Part shown: positions 4,132-20,493 of the stretch, piece by piece
Numbering within the stretch: the first letter of the stretch is position 1
Layout of the letters: each line of letters opens with the position of its first letter
NCBI GenBank assembly: GCA_023251515.1
Contig: JAHEYQ010000007.1
Coordinates: 50,363-98,417, forward strand
Source of the DNA: Bacteroidales bacterium
GTDB taxonomy: Bacteria; Bacteroidota; Bacteroidia; Bacteroidales; JACABE01
DNA: 48,055 nucleotides
Direction: 5' to 3'
Notes under the pieces: generated by a model
The model's database searches: none
The model's input: the letters and a program-made list of their open reading frames with translations, nothing else
What the model was told of the DNA's origin: nothing
Program-made: the position numbers and the translations under genes

Positions 4132-5649
4132 TTAATGTTTAAAATGTCGTTTGCCTGTAAAAGTCATTGCTATCTGATGTTCATCACAATAACTTATTGT
4201 ATCATTGTCTCTTACAGAACCACCCGGTTGAATTACAGCTTTAATACCTTCGTTGTTTGCTATCTCTATTGAGTCTGCAAATGGGAAAAAAGCATCCGAA
4301 GCCATTACAGCTCCTTCTAAATCAAACCCAAATGATTTTGCCTTAGCAATTGCTTGTCGAAGTGCATCAACTCTGGATGTTTGCCCAACCCCACTTGCTA
4401 ATAGCTGTTTATTTTTTACAAGCACAATGGCATTCGATTTTGTATGTTTTACTATAATGTTTGCAAATAATAAATCCTTTATTTGCTCTTTAGTTGCAAT
4501 TGATTTTGTTACCATCTTTAAATCAGACTCTGATTCTTTGTAAGTGTCTCTATCTTGTGCAATTACATCATTTAAAATTGTTTTAAACTGTTTATCGTTT
4601 AATACAAAATCTTTGCGTTGCAAAATTATTCTATTTTTCTTAGATTTTAGTAATTCTAATGCATTTTTTTCAAAATCAGGTGCAATAATTATTTCAAAAA
4701 ATAAACTATTGATTTCCAGAGCAGTATCATCGTCAATTATTCTGTTTGAAATTATTATTCCGCCGAAAGCAGAAACCGGATCAGCTGCCAATGCATCTTT
4801 CCATGCATCAATCAGGTTTGGTCTTGATGCTAAACCACAGGCATTGTTATGTTTAATGATTGCTATTGTAGGTTCTTCAAAATCATTTATTAAATGAATT
4901 GCGGCATCAATATCAAGCATATTATTATATGAAATTTCTTTCCCGTTCAATTGGTTGAAATAATTTGAAATATTTCCATGATAAATAGCTTGTTGATGTG
5001 GATTTTCTCCATATCTCAATGCATTTTGTTGTTTTATACTTTGTTTAAAAACAGAAATTTGCGCAGTTTTATTAAAATAATTAAAAATTTGCGTATCGTA
5101 ATGAGATGAAACATTAAATGCCTTGGCTGCAAGAATTTTGCGGTTTTCTAATGTTGAAAAACCTTCTTGATTTTCAAGAATTTCCATCAGATCAGCATAT
5201 TCATCAGATGAAGGTATAATTACTACATCTTTAAAATTTTTCGCTGCGGCTCTAATTAATGAAATTCCTCCAATATCTATTTTTTCAATAATATCTGCTT
5301 CAATATCAGTCGATCCAACAGTCTTTTCGAAAGGATATAAATCTACAATTACCAAATCAATTTCAGGAATCTGATATTCATTCAATTGCTGAATATCGTT
5401 TTCAAAATCTCTTCTGCACAAAATACCGCCAAAAACTTTTGGATGCAGCGTTTTAACACGACCTCCCAAAATTGAAGGGTAAGAAGTGATTGATTCAACT
5501 GTAATTGCATCAACTCCCATGCTTTTGATATAATCGTATGTACCACCGGTTGAATAGATTAAAACACCTAAGTCATTTAATTTTTTTATAATCGGTGATA
5601 TACCTTCTTTTGAAAATACAGAAATTAATGCACTTTTAATTTTTTTCAT
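4132..5649 (-). CDS. purH: Bifunctional AICAR transformylase / IMP cyclohydrolase PurH
   Basis: 505 aa. N-terminal MGS-like domain (ALISVFSKEGI...GGRVKTLHPKVFGGIL) and C-terminal AICARFT domain. Full length. Confidence 0.95.
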   Translation of the reverse strand: MKKIKSALISVFSKEGISPIIKKLNDLGVLIYSTGGTYDYIKSMGVDAITVESITSYPSILGGRVKTLHPKVFGGILCRRDFENDIQQLNEYQIPEIDLVIVDLYPFEKTVGSTDIEADIIEKIDIGGISLIRAAAKNFKDVVIIPSSDEYADLMEILENQEGFSTLENRKILAAKAFNVSSHYDTQIFNYFNKTAQISVFKQSIKQQNALRYGENPHQQAIYHGNISNYFNQLNGKEISYNNMLDIDAAIHLINDFEEPTIAIIKHNNACGLASRPNLIDAWKDALAADPVSAFGGIIISNRIIDDDTALEINSLFFEIIIAPDFEKNALELLKSKKNRIILQRKDFVLNDKQFKTILNDVIAQDRDTYKESESDLKMVTKSIATKEQIKDLLFANIIVKHTKSNAIVLVKNKQLLASGVGQTSRVDALRQAIAKAKSFGFDLEGAVMASDAFFPFADSIEIANNEGIKAVIQPGGSVRDNDTISYCDEHQIAMTFTGKRHFKH

Positions 5650-5936
5650 TATTCAGAAAACTTTTGAATTTGATACTGAATTTCAGTGATTTGAAAATTT
5701 ATTTTTAATTTGCAAGTATATTAATTATTTTGCCAATAAGCAAGCTTAATAAGTTATTTTTAAGCATCTAATTTTATATATTGATTATTCGATAGTTATA
5801 TTTTGTCAATTCTAATAAAAACAGAATGAAAAAATTCCAAAACTAAATTATTTAGAAAAATTAATTATCATGAGTTTTGCAAAAATTTTTCGAACTGAAA
5901 TGAGTAAATAGAAATATAGTGCTGAATATCAGTATT

Positions 5937-6040
5937 TAAAATAAAAAAAAGAGAGGTATTTACCTCTCTTTTCCCAAAATCTATTAACTCTTTAATTTTA
6001 TGAAAGTATTTATTTATAAATACATTGCAAAGATAATATG
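5937..6040. repeat. Copy 1 of a ~95-100 bp duplicated module: intrinsic terminator hairpin (minus-strand sense) plus conserved palindrome
   Basis: AAAAAAAAGAGAGGTATTTACCTCTCTTTTCCC then palindrome AAAGTATTTAT..ATAAATAC. About 90% identical to the copy at 6297-6400. Confidence 0.7.
5941..5975 (-). terminator. Rho-independent terminator (minus-strand sense: GGGAAAAGAGAGGTAAATACCTCTCT + T8)
   Basis: 9-bp GC-containing stem, 3-nt loop, followed by a T8 run when read on the minus strand. Confidence 0.6.
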
Positions 6041-6296
6041 AAATGGATTGTTTGTCAAGCGATTTAACATATTTTAGTAATATTTTATGAAATTTCAAGA
6101 GAAAGTATTGTATTTGTAAGTTAATCAGTTATATAGAATCTAAAAAATTTAGCAAATATTTGCTATGATTAACATTTGCAAGAAAATTCTATAATATACA
6201 TTGAACAATTGATTTTAATCTTTGCGTTAAAGAATCTATTTTATTTTGGAAATCAGAAAATAATTATATATAATAAAGACAGCAATTTATAAAGTA

Positions 6297-6400
6297 GAAA
6301 ATAAAAAAAGAGAGGTAAATACCTCTCTTTTCCCAAAAATCTATTAACTCTTTAATTTTTATGAAAGTATTTAAATAAATACTTTGCAAAGTTAATATAA
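6297..6400. repeat. Copy 2 of the duplicated terminator+palindrome module
   Basis: AAAAAAAGAGAGGTAAATACCTCTCTTTTCCC and palindrome AAAGTATTTA-AA-TAAATACTTT. Compensatory base changes relative to copy 1 keep the palindrome. Confidence 0.7.
6301..6335 (-). terminator. Rho-independent terminator downstream of the AraC-family gene (minus-strand sense)
   Basis: Same stem-loop as copy 1 followed by a T7-8 run on the minus strand. First terminator after the 6490 stop. Confidence 0.6.
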
Positions 6401-6489
6401 ATATGTTCACTCACCTAAATAATTAACATAAATTTAGTAATAAAGTTTAATGTTGATATTTATAAACGTTTTAAAATACAGTAAAACAG

Positions 6490-7089
6490 TTATATAAGTA
6501 AACTAAATAGTTTAGGATAAATTTCATTTAAAGAAATTCTATTAAAATTTTCCGTTTTCTTTAATTGATTTACTGATAATCCAGTAATATTTTTAAATTG
6601 AGTTGAAAGATATTGAACGCTACTATAACCCATTTTAAATGCTATTTCACTTAAAGTTAATTCCTTATATGATATCAATTCTTTTACTTTTTCAATCCGG
6701 TGCAAAATAATAAATTGCTCCAGAGTTCTGTTTTCTTTTTTAGAAAAGATATTTGAAAGGTATTGATAAGAATATCCTAGTTTTTCAACAAGATAATCAG
6801 AGTTTCTGATTATCGAGTTCATGTTATTCGATTTGTGAATGAGTTCAATAATAGCTATTTTTATTTGTTCCACTAAAATTTCTTCGTTATTTTTTATTAC
6901 TTTAAATCCATTAATACTTAATATCTCTTCAATTTGACTTTCAGTATGTAATTCTAAATCAAATAATACGGTTACTTCACCCGGAATTATTTTTTGAATC
7001 TTAATTTGATTAAAACTGAATAAATATTTAATGGATTTGATGCAACTATCACAAAACATTGATTTTATATAAAATGTTTTAATAACCAT
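6490..7089 (-). CDS. AraC-family HTH transcriptional regulator with N-terminal heavy-metal-associated (HMA)-like domain
   Basis: C-terminal AraC HTH (LSEIAFKMGYSSVQYLSTQFKNITGLSVNQLKK). N-terminus KTFYIKSMFCDSCIKSIKYLFS...ILSINGFKV matches the HMA pattern (M-x-C-x-x-C, ...G(F/Y)). Confidence 0.75.
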   Translation of the reverse strand: MVIKTFYIKSMFCDSCIKSIKYLFSFNQIKIQKIIPGEVTVLFDLELHTESQIEEILSINGFKVIKNNEEILVEQIKIAIIELIHKSNNMNSIIRNSDYLVEKLGYSYQYLSNIFSKKENRTLEQFIILHRIEKVKELISYKELTLSEIAFKMGYSSVQYLSTQFKNITGLSVNQLKKTENFNRISLNEIYPKLFSLLI

Positions 7090-7155
7090 AACTGAAAAAT
7101 AAGAAAACAGAATCTTTTTAAATGTAAAGATTCTGTTTTACTAAATTTATTAAGA

Positions 7156-8304
7156 TTAGAATTTTGAGAATTTTCCTGAAAATTGATTATCAGAATTATA
7201 TATTCTGACTAAATAAGTTCCTTCTGGTAAACTATTAATTGAAATTTTTGAACCTGAATAAATTTCATCTAATGTTGTTATTTCTTTACCTGATAAATCA
7301 ACAATACTTAATCTATATTTCAGATTATCAGATAATATTACAGTTAAATTATCATTTGAAGGATTTGGATAAATATTAATATTCTGATTTAAACCATTTT
7401 TTAAAATTCCCGAGGAAGCAAATTTTGAATTTACAAAGGCCAGATATTTAGTATCTTGAGTAGCAGTATGCCAAAATGAGCCCCCATGAGCCTGACCTGC
7501 TGCCAATTCAAAAACTGCATTTGATGCCCCAATTACTGGCACTAATGCATTATAAAAGTTCTGACCCTGAGTATATGGAATATTCATATCTGCACTACCA
7601 GCAGAAATAAAAAATGCTGCATCATCATTTGATATATAAGTAGTTGGATTTGCTAAAGCTATTCGTTCAGGAATGGTTTGAACTGCTGCTCCCATTAATT
7701 TTGATTCAGGAGAAGTACCTGAATTTGTTGTGATTGTAAAACCCAGTGCTGTAGCTTCAGTATCCATAGTTAAAAAATTGATTGGTCCGAATAAATCAAC
7801 TACAGCATGTACACGACTAGAAACATTGGTATTGCCCAAATGTAATCCTTCCAAATTTGCAACACCAGCAGTAGTTCCTAACATTGAAACAAGATATCCA
7901 CCGGCTGATTCACCTATTACTGCTATTTTATTTGTATCAATATGATATAAAGAAGCATTTGCTTTCAAATAACGAACAGCTGCCTTACAATCGTAAACTT
8001 GAGCTGGCCAAACAGAATCAGTACTTAAGCGATAATTGATATCAGCGCAAACATATCCATTATTGTAAAATGTTGCAAATGAAGGCACTTCGCTACTCCC
8101 TTTACTACCCATCAAAAAAGCACCCCCATGTATATGAATTATTAAAGGACTTGGTGTAGTTACGCTCGTTGGAATATATAAGTCGAGCATTTGTTTTGAA
8201 TTTCCGTTTCCGGCATAATCTAAATTTGTATAAGTTGCTGTTTGTGCTTTTGAATTTAAAGCGATTAATAGAACTAAAATAAAAGGTAAAATTACTTTTT
8301 TCAT
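7156..8304 (-). CDS. Secreted alpha/beta-hydrolase (esterase/lipase fold) with T9SS C-terminal sorting domain
   Basis: Signal peptide MKKVILPFILVLLIALNSKAQ. HGGAF oxyanion-hole motif and GESAGG nucleophile elbow. C-terminal YPNPSNDNLTV...GTYLVRIYNSDNQ is a Por/T9SS CTD. Confidence 0.75.
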   Translation of the reverse strand: MKKVILPFILVLLIALNSKAQTATYTNLDYAGNGNSKQMLDLYIPTSVTTPSPLIIHIHGGAFLMGSKGSSEVPSFATFYNNGYVCADINYRLSTDSVWPAQVYDCKAAVRYLKANASLYHIDTNKIAVIGESAGGYLVSMLGTTAGVANLEGLHLGNTNVSSRVHAVVDLFGPINFLTMDTEATALGFTITTNSGTSPESKLMGAAVQTIPERIALANPTTYISNDDAAFFISAGSADMNIPYTQGQNFYNALVPVIGASNAVFELAAGQAHGGSFWHTATQDTKYLAFVNSKFASSGILKNGLNQNINIYPNPSNDNLTVILSDNLKYRLSIVDLSGKEITTLDEIYSGSKISINSLPEGTYLVRIYNSDNQFSGKFSKF

Positions 8305-8350
8305 TTTTTTTTGATTTTTAAATTATTGTATGTTATTTTTATAAAAAAGA

Positions 8351-8389
8351 TCATTAAAAAATAGCAGGTGTTTTTAATAACACCTGCTA
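8351..8389 (-). terminator. Rho-independent terminator after the lipoprotein gene
   Basis: TAGCAGGTGTT-TTTAAT-AACACCTGCTA 11-bp stem, followed by T6 on the minus strand. Confidence 0.6.
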
Positions 8390-8401
8390 TTATAATATTT
8401 A

Positions 8402-9142
8402 TTATTTTTCGCAAACGATAGTTGCGTCAGCTTTTATGGTAATTTGTTTTCTGTTAGATGATTGATTGATAAATATATTATATTCAATACTACTATCAGC
8501 TAAAGTAAACTTTTCTGCCTTTGGTTTTATAGTAAATCCTGTATATGTATTTGTAATTGCATCAATTACAGTTTGTGGGATAGTTGTAACCGCAATTCTT
8601 TCAGCTCTCAGAACAAATACATTTGCAGTATCAAAAACCAATTTAAAAGGACTGCTTCCAGAAATTCCTATCATTACTTCGGTAACATTTCCAAACTGAC
8701 ACATGGTATCAATTTCAGCATGTAATGAAGAATAGCCTGAATAATTTGTTGAAATATAGTTCAGTATATCAGTAGATAAAGAATCAACAGAAATATCATT
8801 TGCATGATTTCCATGACCGTGATGTCCTCCTCCATGTCCATGATGTCCACCATGACCATGATTTCCGGTTAGAATTGCTGATGAATTTCCCAAATAACTT
8901 CCACTTTTGCTAAATGCAAGTTCTTCACTGGTGTTAAGTGTTAACAGATAATTGGTTTCATCAGAAGTAATAAGAGAAGCTTCTGAAATTGAAGCATCTG
9001 GATAATAGTTGTCAACATATTGAGTAATAGCGGCTGGTAAGCTCGCAATATCAATGCTTTGTTCATTGTAGCTGTTTTCGTCTTTGCTGCATGAACTTAA
9101 AATTGCTGTGCAGATTATTACTGCAAAAATGATCTTTTTCAT
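8402..9142 (-). CDS. Lipoprotein with His/Gly-rich putative metal-binding segment
   Basis: Start placed at the internal Met (MKKIIFAVIICTAILSSCSKD, lipobox LSSC) rather than the upstream ATG of the ORF track. Contains GNHGHGGHHGHGGGHHGHGNH. Confidence 0.5.
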   Translation of the reverse strand: MKKIIFAVIICTAILSSCSKDENSYNEQSIDIASLPAAITQYVDNYYPDASISEASLITSDETNYLLTLNTSEELAFSKSGSYLGNSSAILTGNHGHGGHHGHGGGHHGHGNHANDISVDSLSTDILNYISTNYSGYSSLHAEIDTMCQFGNVTEVMIGISGSSPFKLVFDTANVFVLRAERIAVTTIPQTVIDAITNTYTGFTIKPKAEKFTLADSSIEYNIFINQSSNRKQITIKADATIVCEK

Positions 9143-12832: not shown

Positions 12833-13340
12833 TTTCTTTAAAAAAGACGGAAGACGGAAGACCGAAGACGGAAGACCGAAGTCGGAAGTCGGAAGTCGGG
12901 CTACCGAATGTAAATATTACTGTATTTTCTTTTGAAATGCAACCATCATATTCATTAAATTGAATGCATATTCATAATGTATTAAGAATTCTTTCTCTGA
13001 TATATATTCTCGCCTTTTGGCTTTATGCAAACAAGTAACAACTTCAGCAAGTGAACGTATTGAAAACCCCATAAATCTTTTAAATTCCAGATTAGATTGC
13101 CCAATTGAACCTTCAGATATATTTAATGCAATTGAATCAACTGCTCTTCTTATTTGAGAAGAAAGATTAAATAATTCTTCTTTTGGAAAAGCAGATGTCA
13201 TTTTATGAATGATTTCTCCATAATCCATAGCCATCTGCCAGATAATTAATTTCTCAAATTTGAATTCCATAAATCTGTTTTTGCATTAGTTAAATACTAA
13301 AAGACACAAACTCTACTTTTGACTTCGGTCTTCCCACTTC
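12833..13340. mobile_element. IVS-like element A: heptamer repeats + four-helix-bundle protein gene + inverted terminus
   Basis: Left end has 8 tandem heptamers (GACGGAA/GACCGAA/GTCGGAA, 12846-12900). Right end GACTTCGGTCTTCCCACTTC (13321-13340) is the inverse complement. Fills the whole ispG/peptidase spacer. Confidence 0.6.
12917..13270 (-). CDS. Four-helix-bundle protein (family formerly called 23S rRNA intervening-sequence protein)
   Basis: 117 aa MEFKFEKLIIWQMAMDYGEIIHKMTSAFPKEELFNLSSQIRRAVDSIALNISEG... Characteristic sequence and size of the TIGR02436-type family. Embedded between inverted repeats. Confidence 0.75.
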   Translation of the reverse strand: MEFKFEKLIIWQMAMDYGEIIHKMTSAFPKEELFNLSSQIRRAVDSIALNISEGSIGQSNLEFKRFMGFSIRSLAEVVTCLHKAKRREYISEKEFLIHYEYAFNLMNMMVAFQKKIQ

Positions 13341-15359: not shown

Positions 15360-16403
15360 ATGATAAATCCTGATTTCACTAAAATTGAAGGCATTGTTCT
15401 GCATAAAATCGGTATTAAACTTAATGAAGAAGGTATACGCTATTCTAAATCACCGATTCGTACCGACGAAACCATAAACGAACTGTTGCTTAAATATTTC
15501 TTTTCGCCGTTCAAACAGAGTGAATATTATAACCTTTATCATGACACCGATTTGAATCTGAACGAAATTTACAGCTATGTAAGTAATATTTTTGCAGATA
15601 CTGCTGAATTGCACGAACAGTCAGTAAACATTGCCAAGCATTTGTACGAACAATCTGTACATCCGAAAATAAAAAGCGGCGAAATGTATGTGGTTTATTT
15701 TAAAGATTGTATGCTTGATGGCGAAAATATGGACGCTGTGGGTATTTTTAAATCGGAAAACCGCGAAACTTACCTTAAGGTTTACCCCAGTGGCGATGGA
15801 TTTGAGATTGATAGCGAAGCCGGTATCAATATTAATAAACTCGACAAAGGTTGCCTAATTTTTAATACTGAAAAAGAAAACGGGTATGTGGTTGCGGTGG
15901 TTGACAACCTTAGTAAAGGTAGTGAAGCTCAGTACTGGATGGATAATTTTCTGCATCTTCGGATCAGGCACGACGAATTTCACAATACACGCGAGGTGCT
16001 GAATATGTGCAAAAGTTTTGTGGTAGAAACAATGCCGAAAGAATACGATGTTTCGAAAGCCGACCAAGCTGATTTGCTGAACCAGAGTCTGCAGTTTTTT
16101 AAGGAAAATGAAACCTTTGAATTTGACGATTTTGCCGAAAATGTGATGAAACAACCCGAAGTAATTGAGTCGTTTAAGCAATTCAAAAGTTTTTATGAAG
16201 ATGAAAAAGAATTAAAGATTGCCGATAGTTTCGATATTTCGGAAGAAGCTGTGAAAAAACAGGCAAGAGTGATGAAAAGTGTAATAAAACTTGATAAAAA
16301 CTTTCATATTTATATCCATGGCAAACGCGAACTGATTGAAAAAGGCTATGAAGATGAAAATAAAATGCACTTTTATAAGTTGTATTTTAAGGAGGAGATG
16401 TAA
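15360..16403 (+). CDS. Nucleoid-associated protein, NdpA/YejK (NA37)-like
   Basis: 347 aa. N-terminal KIEGIVLHKIG resembles the YejK INQIALHQLI start. Size and acidic C-terminal half are consistent. Assignment by eye only. Confidence 0.45.
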   Translation: MINPDFTKIEGIVLHKIGIKLNEEGIRYSKSPIRTDETINELLLKYFFSPFKQSEYYNLYHDTDLNLNEIYSYVSNIFADTAELHEQSVNIAKHLYEQSVHPKIKSGEMYVVYFKDCMLDGENMDAVGIFKSENRETYLKVYPSGDGFEIDSEAGININKLDKGCLIFNTEKENGYVVAVVDNLSKGSEAQYWMDNFLHLRIRHDEFHNTREVLNMCKSFVVETMPKEYDVSKADQADLLNQSLQFFKENETFEFDDFAENVMKQPEVIESFKQFKSFYEDEKELKIADSFDISEEAVKKQARVMKSVIKLDKNFHIYIHGKRELIEKGYEDENKMHFYKLYFKEEM

Positions 16404-16499
16404 TACCTTCTTCATTATAAAATATTACAAATAATTACGACGTGTAAATAATCAAAAAGAGTATCGTATTTATTTTTTATAAATGCTAAATATGTTGTA

Positions 16500-16507
16500 A
16501 ATTTGTT
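16500..16507 (+). promoter_or_regulatory. Bacteroidetes sigma-A -7 box candidate (TAAATTTG = TAnnTTTG) ~28 nt upstream of the 16536 start
   Basis: Motif match to the Bacteroidetes -7 consensus, with appropriate spacing to the ATG. Confidence 0.35.
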
Positions 16508-16535: not shown

Positions 16536-19448
16536 ATGGCAACAACATTATTTGAGAAAAATATCCTTGATCTTAACTTTTCTTTTTTAACTCAAAAAGG
16601 AGAAAGTGGGATATTATTGACAAATAATTATGTAAATATCAAAAAAGACTTAGCCTCCCCTGACTTACTATTTTCATTGGAAATTGCCAAAACTAAATTC
16701 AATGCAGATGCAGTATATTTCCGTTTTTTTCAGGATGGAAGAGCAGCAGTGCCTCATTTATACTTATTTGATTATACTCAAAAGAATCTTACCACTGAAG
16801 ATAAGAACCGCATTCATATCCAAATGTGGAATGGCTATCAGGTTCCTGCTTATATTATTATTGAAAAATCTACTGTAAGTGTATTTGATTCCAGAAAGAA
16901 GCCTGATGATAAGAGAGATGTTTACGCAAAAGAAATTATAATATTTGCTGGTGAAGCAATTAAGGATTTTAAAGCACATGATTTTGATGATGGCTTATTT
17001 TGGGATGAACAAAACGAGAAAAAAGATTTTAAATTTGAACAATCTGCTACCAAGGATTTAATTAGGGGCTTGAAAAATGTTTATGAAAGTTTTCAAAAAA
17101 AATCAGGATTAAACAGACATGTCGCACTGAAATTACTTGTCCAAAGCCTTCTTATAAAGTATTTGGAAGAACGAGACGAAAAAAGTGCCAGTGGCTATTT
17201 TGCAGGTACATATTTCAAAAATAATTTCCAGTGTGAAAATTTCTGTGCAACTATCAGAAATGGAAAACTTTTGGATTTATTAGACCAATTGGCTAAAGAC
17301 TTTAATGGTAAAATATTTGAATGGCATAAAGAAGAGGAAAAAGAAGAAAGAGATGCAATTAGAAAAACAGGAGTACAACAACTTGCTGATTATTTAGATG
17401 GAAATATTCAGGACAACCAATATATTCTTTGGCGATTATATTCATTTTCGCATTTACCTGTAGAAGTAATTAGCTCTGTATATGAAGAACTATTGACTGA
17501 CAGTAAAGATATTGTTTACACACCAGAAATGATAGTTTGCACTTTGGTGGATGAATGTATGCCTCTAAAATGCCCGAAACAGGATTTTAAATTAATTGAT
17601 GTAAGTTGTGGCTCGGGAATTTTTTTGGTAAAAGCGTATAAACGCATTGTCCAATGGTGGAGATATGAACAATGGTTAAAAACCGGAGAATTAGTTAAAC
17701 CCCCATTATCTGTATTAAAAGAGTTGCTTTTAAAAAGCATACACGGCATAGATATAGAACAGGATGCCATACGATTAACTGTATTTAGTCTGGCATTGGC
17801 AATCTTGGATGAAGTTAATTTAGACCCACCAACATGGCAAGTACTTAAGTTTCCAGATTTAAGTGAGAATATTGTTACAAAAGACTTCTTCAAGTATATT
17901 ACAACATTTCCAAAAGACAGATTTGATTTAGTAATTGGCAATCCTCCATTTAACTTGCAAACTGTTAATGGTAAAGAACCGAACAGAAAAAGATATTTTA
18001 AGGAATTAAAAGAACAAACAGGATACAAAAGCGAGATTAGCATCCCTGATGAAAACCCTGCTTTGCACTTTTTGGTACAATCAATGAATTTATTAGAACC
18101 TAACGCTTTGCTTTGTTTGATTCAACCTTCAGGTCCATTGCTCTACCAAAAGGATATAGATTTTAAGCAGAAATTGTTTTCCAAACATAATCTATTGCAA
18201 GTTATTGATTTTACTAAACTGGCAGATAAACTTTGGGGTAGGAAAAATGTAGCTACTGCTGCAGTATTTATACAAAATTTAACCCCTGATAATGAAGACG
18301 TTCTTCACTTGGTTGCCAATCGTACCTTTTCAAATAAAAACCGTTTATTTTTAGAATTTGACCACTATGATTTTCATTTAGTCAGCAAAGACGCTATTTT
18401 GCAAAATCCATATATTTGGAAAGCAAATTTATTAGGTGGAGGTAGGATTGTGCAATTGATTGAAAGATTATCAAGTTTACGGACACTAGGAGAATTTTTA
18501 AATGGAAAAGAAAACGAAGGATGGATAAAAGGGGAAGGATTTATAGAAAAAGGTGATAAAAATCAAGCAACATATATTACTGGTAATGATTTTTTACCCA
18601 CAGAATCATTTTCTGAAAAAGGTTTTGAAATTGACCATTTCCCTAAATGTACAATCGATTTTTTTCATAGACCTAGAAAAAAAGAATTGTATAGTCCACC
18701 TCATTTATTAATTAGAAAAGTTCTTGGAAAAGAAAAACTAATAACAAAATTCTCTGATTTATATTTAACCTTTCTTAGTGATATTTTTTCAATTTATGCA
18801 CCAATGAAAGACAGAAGTGAATTAATTAATATTTCTAATTATTTAGATTCAACTGGTGAGTTATTACGTTTTTATATCTTAGCGACTAGTAGTAGAGTTA
18901 AAGTCAATAAAGCAACTTCATTATATGATGAAGATATTTTGAATATTCCTTTTCCTTATAATCTATCTGAAGTTATACTTTCAATAGCTGAAAATATATT
19001 ATTAAATGATTCAATGCTATATTTCTTTTGTTCAGATTCTAAAAACGTCTTTGAACAAAGTATTTCAGAAAAACAAATACAGCAATTCTCAAATATTTTC
19101 TGCCAAACATTAAATAGCGTATATCAATCTGAAGGAAAATCTTTTCAACTATTTAAAATACTGGATGCTGGTAAATATTATGCCTTACACTTTGAATATT
19201 CAACAGAAATTATCAATCCTGAAATTGAACAAATAGATAATTTAGAACAATATATAAACGAAATAATTCCTGCAAGAAAAAAAAACCAAGAAAATACTCA
19301 TATCCAGAGAATAATGAAAGTGTATGGACAGGATTGTATCATTTTGGCCAAACCCAAACAATTACGTTACTGGTTACTCTCAATTGCTTTAAGGGATGCA
19401 GATGAAACATTTGCTGACTACATAAAAACCCGTTACCATAATGCTTAA
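16536..19448 (+). CDS. Single-chain Type IIG / MmeI-like restriction-modification protein: gamma-class N6-adenine DNA methyltransferase core with large N- and C-terminal extensions
   Basis: 970 aa. Motif I IDVSCGSGIFLV, then HGIDIEQDAIRLTVFSLALAIL, then motif IV VIGNPPFN, in the same order as MmeI (DPACGCGNFLV / GIEIEEFPAQIAQVALWL / ILGNPPF). N-terminal PAYIIIEKS resembles the MmeI ILLIEMKSRG nuclease segment. ~500-aa C-terminal region would be the TRD. Confidence 0.75.
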   Translation: MATTLFEKNILDLNFSFLTQKGESGILLTNNYVNIKKDLASPDLLFSLEIAKTKFNADAVYFRFFQDGRAAVPHLYLFDYTQKNLTTEDKNRIHIQMWNGYQVPAYIIIEKSTVSVFDSRKKPDDKRDVYAKEIIIFAGEAIKDFKAHDFDDGLFWDEQNEKKDFKFEQSATKDLIRGLKNVYESFQKKSGLNRHVALKLLVQSLLIKYLEERDEKSASGYFAGTYFKNNFQCENFCATIRNGKLLDLLDQLAKDFNGKIFEWHKEEEKEERDAIRKTGVQQLADYLDGNIQDNQYILWRLYSFSHLPVEVISSVYEELLTDSKDIVYTPEMIVCTLVDECMPLKCPKQDFKLIDVSCGSGIFLVKAYKRIVQWWRYEQWLKTGELVKPPLSVLKELLLKSIHGIDIEQDAIRLTVFSLALAILDEVNLDPPTWQVLKFPDLSENIVTKDFFKYITTFPKDRFDLVIGNPPFNLQTVNGKEPNRKRYFKELKEQTGYKSEISIPDENPALHFLVQSMNLLEPNALLCLIQPSGPLLYQKDIDFKQKLFSKHNLLQVIDFTKLADKLWGRKNVATAAVFIQNLTPDNEDVLHLVANRTFSNKNRLFLEFDHYDFHLVSKDAILQNPYIWKANLLGGGRIVQLIERLSSLRTLGEFLNGKENEGWIKGEGFIEKGDKNQATYITGNDFLPTESFSEKGFEIDHFPKCTIDFFHRPRKKELYSPPHLLIRKVLGKEKLITKFSDLYLTFLSDIFSIYAPMKDRSELINISNYLDSTGELLRFYILATSSRVKVNKATSLYDEDILNIPFPYNLSEVILSIAENILLNDSMLYFFCSDSKNVFEQSISEKQIQQFSNIFCQTLNSVYQSEGKSFQLFKILDAGKYYALHFEYSTEIINPEIEQIDNLEQYINEIIPARKKNQENTHIQRIMKVYGQDCIILAKPKQLRYWLLSIALRDADETFADYIKTRYHNA

Positions 19449-20121
19449 AGATAGTCTTCCTTTATATCAACCGCCAAGACTTAATGATCTTAAAGTTGCA
19501 CCGTCTCTTGAGGTCGATAAAATTTTAGTATTTATTGATACAAATATTCCCAATTTTTGTCTTTACTACCAGTCGATAAAAGATTCTGAGAAGGAAAACC
19601 GGATAAGTGATTTGCTGATTCATCATTTTCAACTCTGTAAAACAGAACAGGCTGGTGGCTTTTTCCCTTTTGATTTCAGAAAAAACCCAACACAAGAACA
19701 TTCTACAAAAGAGACTGATATTGGTGTTTTTGTGATGACAAGAAATTCAAAACCTCTTCCGATAATTGAGTTTGAAGCAAAAAGGTTTTCAGAATCATCC
19801 AACAATAAAGAATATGTATGCGGAGATAGAGGAGGTATTGAACGTTTTAAAAGAGGGCATCATTCTTCCCATCTTACTATTTGTGGAATGTTTGGGTATG
19901 TACAAAGTCGAACTTCTGATAAATGGATAACCAAAGTGAATAACTGGATATGTGAATTATCATTAAAGAATACAGATAAAACGATTGAATGGAAAGATAA
20001 AAAAGAATTATTAGTAAAAAAGACTTCTTTTCCTAATATTGAAAAACTTTCTTCTCTTCATTCACGTAAACAATCAAATGATAATATTGCTCTTTGGCAT
20101 TATTTTATCGAACTAAGATAG
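19441..20121 (+). CDS. Hypothetical protein translationally coupled to the RM-like gene; possible PD-(D/E)xK nuclease-fold protein
   Basis: ATG at 19441 overlaps the upstream TAA (ATGCTTAA). Segment DIGVFVMTRNSKPLPIIEFEAKR gives a D-x17-E-x-K pattern. No other recognisable domain. Confidence 0.4.
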   Translation: MLKDSLPLYQPPRLNDLKVAPSLEVDKILVFIDTNIPNFCLYYQSIKDSEKENRISDLLIHHFQLCKTEQAGGFFPFDFRKNPTQEHSTKETDIGVFVMTRNSKPLPIIEFEAKRFSESSNNKEYVCGDRGGIERFKRGHHSSHLTICGMFGYVQSRTSDKWITKVNNWICELSLKNTDKTIEWKDKKELLVKKTSFPNIEKLSSLHSRKQSNDNIALWHYFIELR

Positions 20122-20280
20122 TTTATTTTGATTGTCCTTTTAAAGCAGTATTAATTTATCAAATTAATTAATCCAAGCTGTGTTTAAATCCAAATATAAA
20201 ATTACATTTCAGCTCGACATACTTCTATAAATAAATAACAATTATTTTTAATCCAACTCAATCCATTTATTTTATATAAC

Positions 20281-20303
20281 CATCTATATAAATTATATAG
20301 ATG
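20281..20303. promoter_or_regulatory. Perfect 23-bp palindrome CATCTATATAA-A-TTATATAGATG in the AT-rich spacer
   Basis: Exact inverted repeat read directly. A second near-palindrome ATCAACATCTAT-N9-ATAGATATTGAT lies at 20423-20455. Confidence 0.4.
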
Positions 20304-20493
20304 ATTATTCTTTTTATATAGTTAACTATTAATTTTATATAATAAATTTTATATAATAAATAATCATTTATATAAATAATATAACAGTCTATTCTTTTTA
20401 TATAGATAGTTATTAAAATAATATCAACATCTATATATTTTTAATAGATATTGATACTTTTTTTATAGATTCAGATGTTTTGAATACCTCCCG

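Follow-up and report, generated by a model that had tools for sequence, protein, structure and literature searches.

A two-gene cassette in the DNA analysed here, a 48,055-nt stretch of a Bacteroidales bacterium contig (the window), probably encodes a split restriction-modification (RM) system resembling Types IIG and IIL, in which a large modification and specificity subunit (M·S) recruits a small restriction subunit (R). The cassette comprises two open reading frames (ORFs) on the plus strand, 16536..19448 (970 aa) and 19441..20121 (226 aa), both present as described in a first-pass annotation of the window. That annotation offered several interpretations of the pair, among which a split RM enzyme proved the best fit. 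The elements of the cassette are as follows.

16498-16505, plus strand: candidate promoter TAAATTTG, fitting TAnnTTTG, read from the sequence 30 nt before the ATG; its function is putative
16536-16955, plus strand: N-terminal alpha/beta domain of the large protein (aa 1-140), with a restriction-endonuclease-like fold
16983-17540, plus strand: helical domain (aa ~150-335), like the N-terminal domain of Type I HsdM and PglX
17541-18485, plus strand: gamma-class N6-adenine DNA methyltransferase domain (aa 336-650), assigned from Pfam, PADLOC and invariant residues
18498-19100, plus strand: hypervariable target-recognition domain (TRD; aa ~655-855), delimited by low pairwise identity
19101-19448, plus strand: conserved C-terminal domain (aa 856-970) and stop codon, mean pairwise identity 0.64
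19441-19448, plus strand: 8-nt gene overlap, ATGCTTAA, read from the sequence
19441-20121, plus strand: small subunit of 226 aa, predicted to be a PD-(D/E)xK nuclease whose core resembles those of BamHI, BglII and BstYI, its family unnamed in databases

The stop codon of the first gene overlaps the start of the second within ATGCTTAA, as had been noted, an arrangement that would couple their translation, M first and then R. Junctions were overlapping or abutting in all 55 related loci measured (8 nt in 38, 14 or 17 nt in six, 7 nt in one, 1 nt in six, and directly abutting in four). TAnnTTTG is the -7 promoter consensus of Bacteroidota, and the box previously pointed out ahead of the pair is indeed there, although it remains a candidate promoter; a scan for sigma-70 promoters and terminators gave no sites above the level of shuffled sequence.

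A locus scan that took one genome per species yielded 64 loci (designated by L numbers), mostly in Bacteroidota with some in Ignavibacteriales and Balneolaceae, and a methylase homologue lay directly upstream of the small gene in every one of the 64 with sufficient upstream DNA. Carriers include Flavobacterium cupreum, F. rakeshii, Leeuwenhoekiella marinoflava, Chryseobacterium taichungense, Alkalitalea saponilacus and Bacteroides salyersiae DSM 18765. The order was kept at 23-29% identity in Desulfobacterota, Planctomycetota, a Pseudomonadota metagenome-assembled genome (MAG; L065) and other MAGs. It was found again in a sister clade, where methylases of 1030-1060 aa are followed by ORFs of 210-222 aa, at two more distant relatives of the small protein, and on alphaproteobacterial plasmids, whose annotation names the two genes 'SAM-dependent methyltransferase' and 'hypothetical protein'. 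Strict synteny and the conserved junction support the earlier suggestion that the two genes form one RM-like unit. No flanking gene was common to the 64 loci; the window's NA37 gene, 161-aa gene and dnaG are not shared. At one locus (L155, 1344-2288), on a contig of 2.4 kb, a 314-aa small-protein relative has no methylase ahead of it and has neighbours on the opposite strand, and translating the locus did not yield the query; this may be either an exception to strict pairing or an assembly artefact.

These gene arrangements bear on a reading in which the pair is a non-restriction methylation system, similar to BREX, PglX or YeeA and serving addiction or regulation, with the small protein as sensor, regulator or toxin; in its weakest form it reduces to an orphan methylase next to an unrelated gene. 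In its favour, the methylase models of MAD2 and PglX in NCBIfam and PADLOC give weak matches, the cassette is present among toxin-antitoxin genes on plasmid pFER2, and MmeI-like methylases without a nuclease motif do work with other partner genes (PMC2731913). The matches are nevertheless far too low (MAD2 41 bits against a cut-off of 720, PglX 34 against 400), BREX, MADS, DISARM and helicase genes do not lie beside the pair, and only the two genes travel together. Strict synteny at 23% identity, together with the co-divergence described below, rules out that the second gene is unrelated, while the invariant acidic and lysine residues of the small protein favour catalysis. We regard this reading as improbable. 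The BREX or Type ISP variant raised in the first-pass annotation fared no better: no PglZ/BrxC-type or helicase genes or domains were found and the flanks are not conserved. BREX systems combine PglX with PglZ, BrxC/PglY and others, and PglX models scored 18-34 bits against cut-offs of 400-900. The BREX, MADS and Type ISP readings were rejected on gene content and sub-threshold scores.

The pair is a self-contained, horizontally mobile cassette. Its GC content was 0.30-0.37 in 48 loci with flanks ranging from 0.29 to 0.61, and was below that of the flanks in 44 of the 48. In the window itself the module (GC 0.308) stands at the 30th percentile of a background of 0.326, so that the AT-rich island previously proposed was not borne out. 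At one locus (L030) GC falls from about 0.64 to 0.34 at ~5000-5050 and returns at ~8700-8750, enclosing exactly the two genes, which points to very recent transfer into a genome of high GC; a chimeric contig is a less likely explanation. This locus is on contig CAIUQW010000049.1 of a Chlorobiales bin, where the cassette (5000-8750, GC ~0.34) lies within DNA of GC 0.62-0.68. Copies assigned to Woesearchaeota (L008), Hyphomicrobiales (L057) and Desulfatiglans (L020) may be transfers or mis-binned contigs. Neighbours elsewhere include the toxin-antitoxin genes of pFER2, a Type III RM system with Fic, other large RM genes and AAA ATPases. One distant pair (L156; GCA_001647275.1, LRMM01000018.1) has resolvase and mercury-resistance genes beside it and TIR and AbiEii genes nearby, and another (L153) lies beside ParA, MerR and several small helix-turn-helix (HTH) genes, contexts that suggest carriage on transposons or plasmids. 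A search for an empty site with the neighbouring dnaG as query returned nearest relatives only 67% identical and without shared synteny, and tRNA and Rfam scans of the window found nothing and gave no clue to an integration site.

Genes upstream of the methylase were also noted. Five Bacteroidota loci (L035, L058, L061, L062, L064) have a same-strand XRE-type HTH gene of 257-297 aa about 100 nt upstream, and two of the sister clade that share the same methylase (L066 and L067) have a 217-aa Peptidase_S24 (LexA-like) gene, at 5317-5970 and 598-1251, respectively; unannotated ORFs of 162-168 aa occupy this position in L068 and L069. The XRE-type and Peptidase_S24 genes may be controllers; the window carries no such gene.

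Read from its sequence, the large protein is a gamma-class N6-adenine methylase with an MmeI/Type IIG-like order of domains: a nuclease-fold N-domain, an HsdM-like helical domain, the methylase, a hypervariable TRD and a conserved C-domain. Gamma-class enzymes carry motif I (FxGxG-type), then motif IV (NPPY/F/W), with the TRD C-terminal to both. In agreement with the first-pass annotation, IDVSCGSGIFLV, HGIDIEQDAIRL and GNPPFN were found in this order, with motif I (DVSCGSG) at aa 355-361, motif IV (NPPF) at aa 469-472 and the variable domain following. D355, G359, S360 and N469-P470-P471 are invariant in an alignment of the methylases of two clades. Pfam matches above cut-off were Eco57I (6.6e-16) and N6_Mtase (2.5e-12), the REBASE-derived PADLOC profiles REase_MTase_IIG also matched (PDLC03623, E 3.5e-28, aa 94-806; PDLC03604, 1.1e-17), and a profile search of the PDB aligned M.TaqI and DrdV across the NPPF region. 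Matches to KAT8 acetyltransferase in a single-sequence PDB search (E ~0.02) were disregarded as chance.

Among 1366 homologues of the large protein the best 120 are 64-79% identical over nearly the whole length. Alignments show conservation of aa 1-650 and 856-970, the former including the methylase domain at a mean pairwise identity of 0.71, and hypervariability of aa ~655-855, where the mean is 0.36 and the minimum 0.22. At 50% identity the TRDs of 41 proteins fall into at least 12 classes, and their divergence is uncorrelated with that of the frame (rho 0.02). The C-domain segment KPKQLRYWL...ALRDADE is almost invariant among homologues. A specificity domain of some 500 C-terminal residues had been proposed; a variable TRD exists, but measures about 200 aa, and the remaining ~115 aa form the conserved C-domain.

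Structure prediction of the N-terminal region, a check proposed with the first-pass annotation, gave a nuclease-like fold, but no catalytic triad conserved family-wide was found in this domain across the clades aligned. The IIIEKS segment, which had been likened to the MmeI nuclease motif, varies in close homologues (E109 to T, Q, N or D; K110 to Q or S) and is absent from sister clades. In the first two clades only P73, Y76, H94, W98, N99 and P104 are invariant, and with the plasmid clade added H94, W98 and P104 remain conserved. With neither the IEKS residues nor a triad conserved, the self-sufficient single-chain RM enzyme of the first-pass annotation is not supported. The N-domain is presumed to be a degenerate nuclease domain, and is a candidate docking site for the small subunit. 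A profile-profile comparison of the small protein with the N-region of the large one found them unrelated (probability 0.3%), so the small subunit is not a detectable duplicate of this domain.

The main rival to the split enzyme, kept alive by D58 and D79 of this domain, is a single-chain Type IIG enzyme with a helper, in which the N-domain would still nick one strand and the small protein would supply the second catalytic site, as in BspD6I. Besides the nuclease fold, it can call on the invariance of both aspartates in all members of the Bacteroidota clade and on their modelled position at the start and end of two adjacent hairpin strands (59-63 and 72-80), as in a PD...(D/E)xK site. The position of the motif lysine, however, is occupied by Thr81, and no motif lysine is present; the sister clade has Gly in place of D58, and the plasmid clade has His there and has also lost D79, whereas the triad of the small protein is invariant everywhere. 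Two MmeI homologues without PD-ExK had no endonuclease activity (Morgan et al. 2009, PMC2731913). We consider a nicking N-domain unlikely.

The small protein, in turn, is likely to be a nuclease, judging from its predicted structure and conserved residues. A PD-(D/E)xK core has the order alpha-beta-beta-beta-alpha-beta, in which the second strand begins with Asp and the third carries (D/E)xK. The small protein contains D93-x16-E110-F-E112-A-K114, the residues of the D-x17-EFEAK pattern reported at first, with the spacing corrected. E52, D93, E112 and K114 do not vary among 42 diverse homologues (25-58% identity). An AF2 model (predicted local distance difference test, pLDDT, 80; predicted template modelling score, pTM, 0.79) shows the expected alpha-beta-beta-beta-alpha-beta core, with helix 55-69, strands 77-81, 93-98 and 106-116, helices within 122-138 and strand 147-154, in which D93 starts strand 93-98 and E110, E112 and K114 lie on strand 106-116. 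The modelled core and the invariant D93, E112 and K114 support the PD-(D/E)xK core first suggested from the sequence, and the invariant acidic and lysine residues argue for catalysis.

Database searches placed the small protein in no named family. Against Pfam, NCBIfam, PADLOC and the PDB, by single sequence and by profile, there were only isolated or sub-threshold chance matches; the 42 diverse relatives scanned one by one had no family match; Foldseek of the model against the PDB gave only noise (phosphatases, E >= 0.055); and a phage collection held no homologue. A word-index search returned 449 homologues, the best 120 being full-length and 64-76% identical, with 'hypothetical protein' as the only name any of these sources gave. 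An exhaustive HMMER search extended the superfamily to 701 clusters at 50% identity, and the 150 of these listed are at most 332 aa (mostly ~210-250 aa), none being fused to a large protein.

The co-divergence of the small protein with each part of the large one was compared in 41 M/R pairs (Spearman rho on identities). Small-protein identity tracked that of the N-domain (rho 0.90), the helical domain (0.82), the methylase domain (0.90) and the C-domain (0.84), but not that of the TRD (0.08). In pairs of loci such as L034 and L038 the small proteins are 88% identical and the TRDs 25%, and across TRD classes the small protein keeps 80-88% identity. No sub-region of it follows the TRD (partial correlation <= 0.22). 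A small protein that does not co-diverge with the TRD cannot carry matching sequence specificity, and a stand-alone specific nuclease would attack its own host under such TRD shuffling; the target must therefore come from the large subunit.

The same comparison weighs on an orthodox Type II system, with the small protein as a stand-alone specific endonuclease and the large protein as a gamma-methylase of unusual size that is cognate to it. Structurally, the small protein comes closest to orthodox Type IIP enzymes such as BstYI, BglII and BamHI, the XRE-type regulators upstream in some loci resemble Type II controller proteins, and gamma-methylases with a fused TRD and a separate nuclease are common (review, PMC3874165). 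A stand-alone nuclease would, however, need a new specificity at each change of TRD, and the 12 or more TRD classes are served by a small protein that stays 80-88% identical and of which no part co-varies with them. In an orthodox system R would diverge with the specificity of M, but rho was near zero for the TRD and high for the methylase frame. Nor would this reading explain why the methylase has a conserved nuclease-fold N-domain and a C-domain. An orthodox Type II system is thus very improbable. In size the small protein is like BamHI, BglII, BstYI and OkrAI (~200-225 aa), and like them it has acidic catalytic residues on the second and third core strands; the Type IIP enzymes, however, read their own palindromic site.

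Returning to the split enzyme, one of the known systems closest to it is the MmeI family (Type IIL/IIG, including BpuSI and DrdV), with which the large protein shares the domain order, including the NPPF methylase, the swappable TRD and the C-domain. In both there is no second methylase gene and the TRD diversifies on a conserved frame. In the large protein, however, nothing conserved corresponds to the catalytic D-x8-ExK of MmeI, and of the Pfam MmeI models only MmeI_Mtase matched, at 19 bits and under its cut-off of 27; MmeI_N, MmeI_hel, MmeI_TRD and MmeI_C gave no match at E up to 0.1, and PDB sequence searches (maximum E 1) matched no MmeI chain. Judged by motif and by Pfam models, the pair falls outside the MmeI family. 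Sister-clade proteins do carry a precomputed MmeI_Mtase match. Only the pair has an obligate second gene for the predicted nuclease. MmeI and other Type IIL enzymes methylate one strand and cleave about 20 nt away, needing two sites. Similarity to Type IIG is evident from the PADLOC profiles, but that type is defined by R and M in one polypeptide, and in the pair the methylase motifs are intact and the predicted nuclease is on a separate chain.

Other systems share parts of this layout. Heterodimeric Type IIS enzymes such as BspD6I (large and small subunits), and further BtsI and BsrDI, likewise have a small catalytic subunit that lacks specificity and needs a large recognising subunit. BspD6I-type large subunits, however, are nicking endonucleases without a methylase, their methylases being separate genes, whereas in the pair it is the methylase that recognises the target, and the nuclease-fold domain it carries is seemingly inactive. 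In Type III (Mod/Res) and Type I (HsdM-HsdS/HsdR) systems, too, specificity and methylation reside in one component and a non-specific nuclease acts in trans; the helical domain of the large protein resembles the HsdM N-domain, and overlapping coupled genes are typical of hsdM/hsdS (PMC6158711). Neither protein of the pair, by contrast, has a helicase or translocase ATPase domain in Pfam, including the SF2 (superfamily 2) type of Type ISP, Type I and Type III systems, and R is only 226 aa; Mod of Type III is a beta-class methylase, and that of the pair is gamma-class with a C-terminally fused TRD. By analogy, the pair may work in the manner of a Type IIG/IIL enzyme whose nuclease has a chain to itself, or of a Type I or Type III system without a motor.

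MmeI homologues without the PD-ExK motif have conserved neighbour genes (Morgan et al. 2009, PMC2731913), so that partner-dependent MmeI-like methylases without the motif have a precedent. B. subtilis YeeA and BREX PglX are likewise large MmeI-like M·S proteins that lack PD-ExK and depend on neighbours (PMC2731913). The partners of YeeA are a helicase and a hypothetical protein (YeeBC), and those of PglX a multi-gene BREX set, whereas the pair has a single small PD-(D/E)xK protein.

In the proposed mechanism, the swappable TRD of the 970-aa M·S subunit would read a short DNA target, at which the gamma-class methylase would mark an adenine and so protect host DNA. The N-domain would have kept a restriction-endonuclease fold and lost the conserved triad, and the 226-aa R subunit would be a PD-(D/E)xK nuclease without sequence specificity of its own. 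Through translational coupling R would be made only after the methylase, and the M-then-R order with overlapping stop and start codons would both delay and limit its synthesis, as suits a toxic nuclease in a mobile cassette. The large subunit would then recruit R, probably through the fossil nuclease domain as the most plausible docking site, and unmethylated DNA would be cut at or near the bound sites. The analysis itself showed the structure of the genes, the folds of their domains, the invariant residues, the obligate synteny, the limits of the cassette and a shuffling of the TRD that does not involve the nuclease; complex formation, docking, stoichiometry, DNA methylation, cleavage, the position of the cut and a role in defence are all steps that we infer.

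Several points weigh against the split enzyme. No methylation motif or cleavage was found reported for any member of the pair family. D58 and D79 do not vary within the clade to which the window belongs and are predicted to be adjacent on a beta-hairpin, so that some residual activity of the N-domain is conceivable. Both structural models come from shallow alignments, that of the N-terminal region with a pLDDT of 70.6 and that of the small protein with a pLDDT of 80. Co-divergence of the small protein with the frame may also reflect mere shared ancestry.

More tentatively, and with the balance tipping slightly towards doubt, the pair could represent a large unrecognised RM class spread over several phyla, in which a specificity-less nuclease of the BamHI fold is loaded in trans, via a fossil nuclease domain, onto an M·S protein of the Type IIG/IIL kind. 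A literature search found no description of the two-gene family; REBASE, which was outside its scope, may already list the pair. Under automated annotation the large gene would receive the name 'Type IIG' or 'N-6 DNA methylase' and the small one would stay 'hypothetical', so that the probable actual nuclease is missed. In published schemes Type IIG enzymes arise out of Type I parts when a nuclease domain is fused to an M-S fusion (PMC6158711), and a motor-less split M·S plus R would fill a gap in them. The fossil domain suggests that the nuclease role passed from a fused domain to a free subunit. If the proposal is correct, the pair is a natural intermediate between Types I and III, with the nuclease in trans, and Type IIG, with the nuclease fused; it would, in addition, be modular by nature, a cutter directed to its target solely by a swappable TRD. 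One conserved nuclease serving at least 12 TRD classes is a property sought in the engineering of restriction specificities.

The DNA that follows the cassette was described in the first-pass annotation as 370 bp of extreme AT content with palindromes.

20122-20493, no strand assigned: extremely AT-rich spacer of 372 bp lying where two genes converge, containing palindromes and TATATAG repeats

Its composition is as described, with a GC content of 0.172, in the lowest 0.1% of same-size windows within the window, and a perfect palindrome, CATCTATATAA-A-TTATATAGATG, with 11-nt arms at 20280-20302. It also holds two copies of TTTTTATATAG and half of the TATATAG/CTATATA copies of the window. Its neighbours are the small gene and a 161-aa gene on the minus strand, with convergent 3′ ends, and it has no Rfam match. 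In 48 other loci the DNA downstream of the small gene is not AT-rich (mean GC 0.368); the spacer is thus no conserved component and probably not part of the cassette.

Three further features of the window were noted. Directly upstream of the cassette, at 15360-16403, is a gene for a 37-kD nucleoid-associated protein (Pfam NA37, 2.5e-36) that is unlinked to the cassette elsewhere. A 117-aa four-helix-bundle protein of the 23S_rRNA_IVP family (PF05635, 5.6e-29) is encoded on the minus strand at 12917-13270, flanked by ispG and a peptidase-like gene. GC within the window is at its lowest in the kilobase 6001-7000 (0.218), below that of the cassette.

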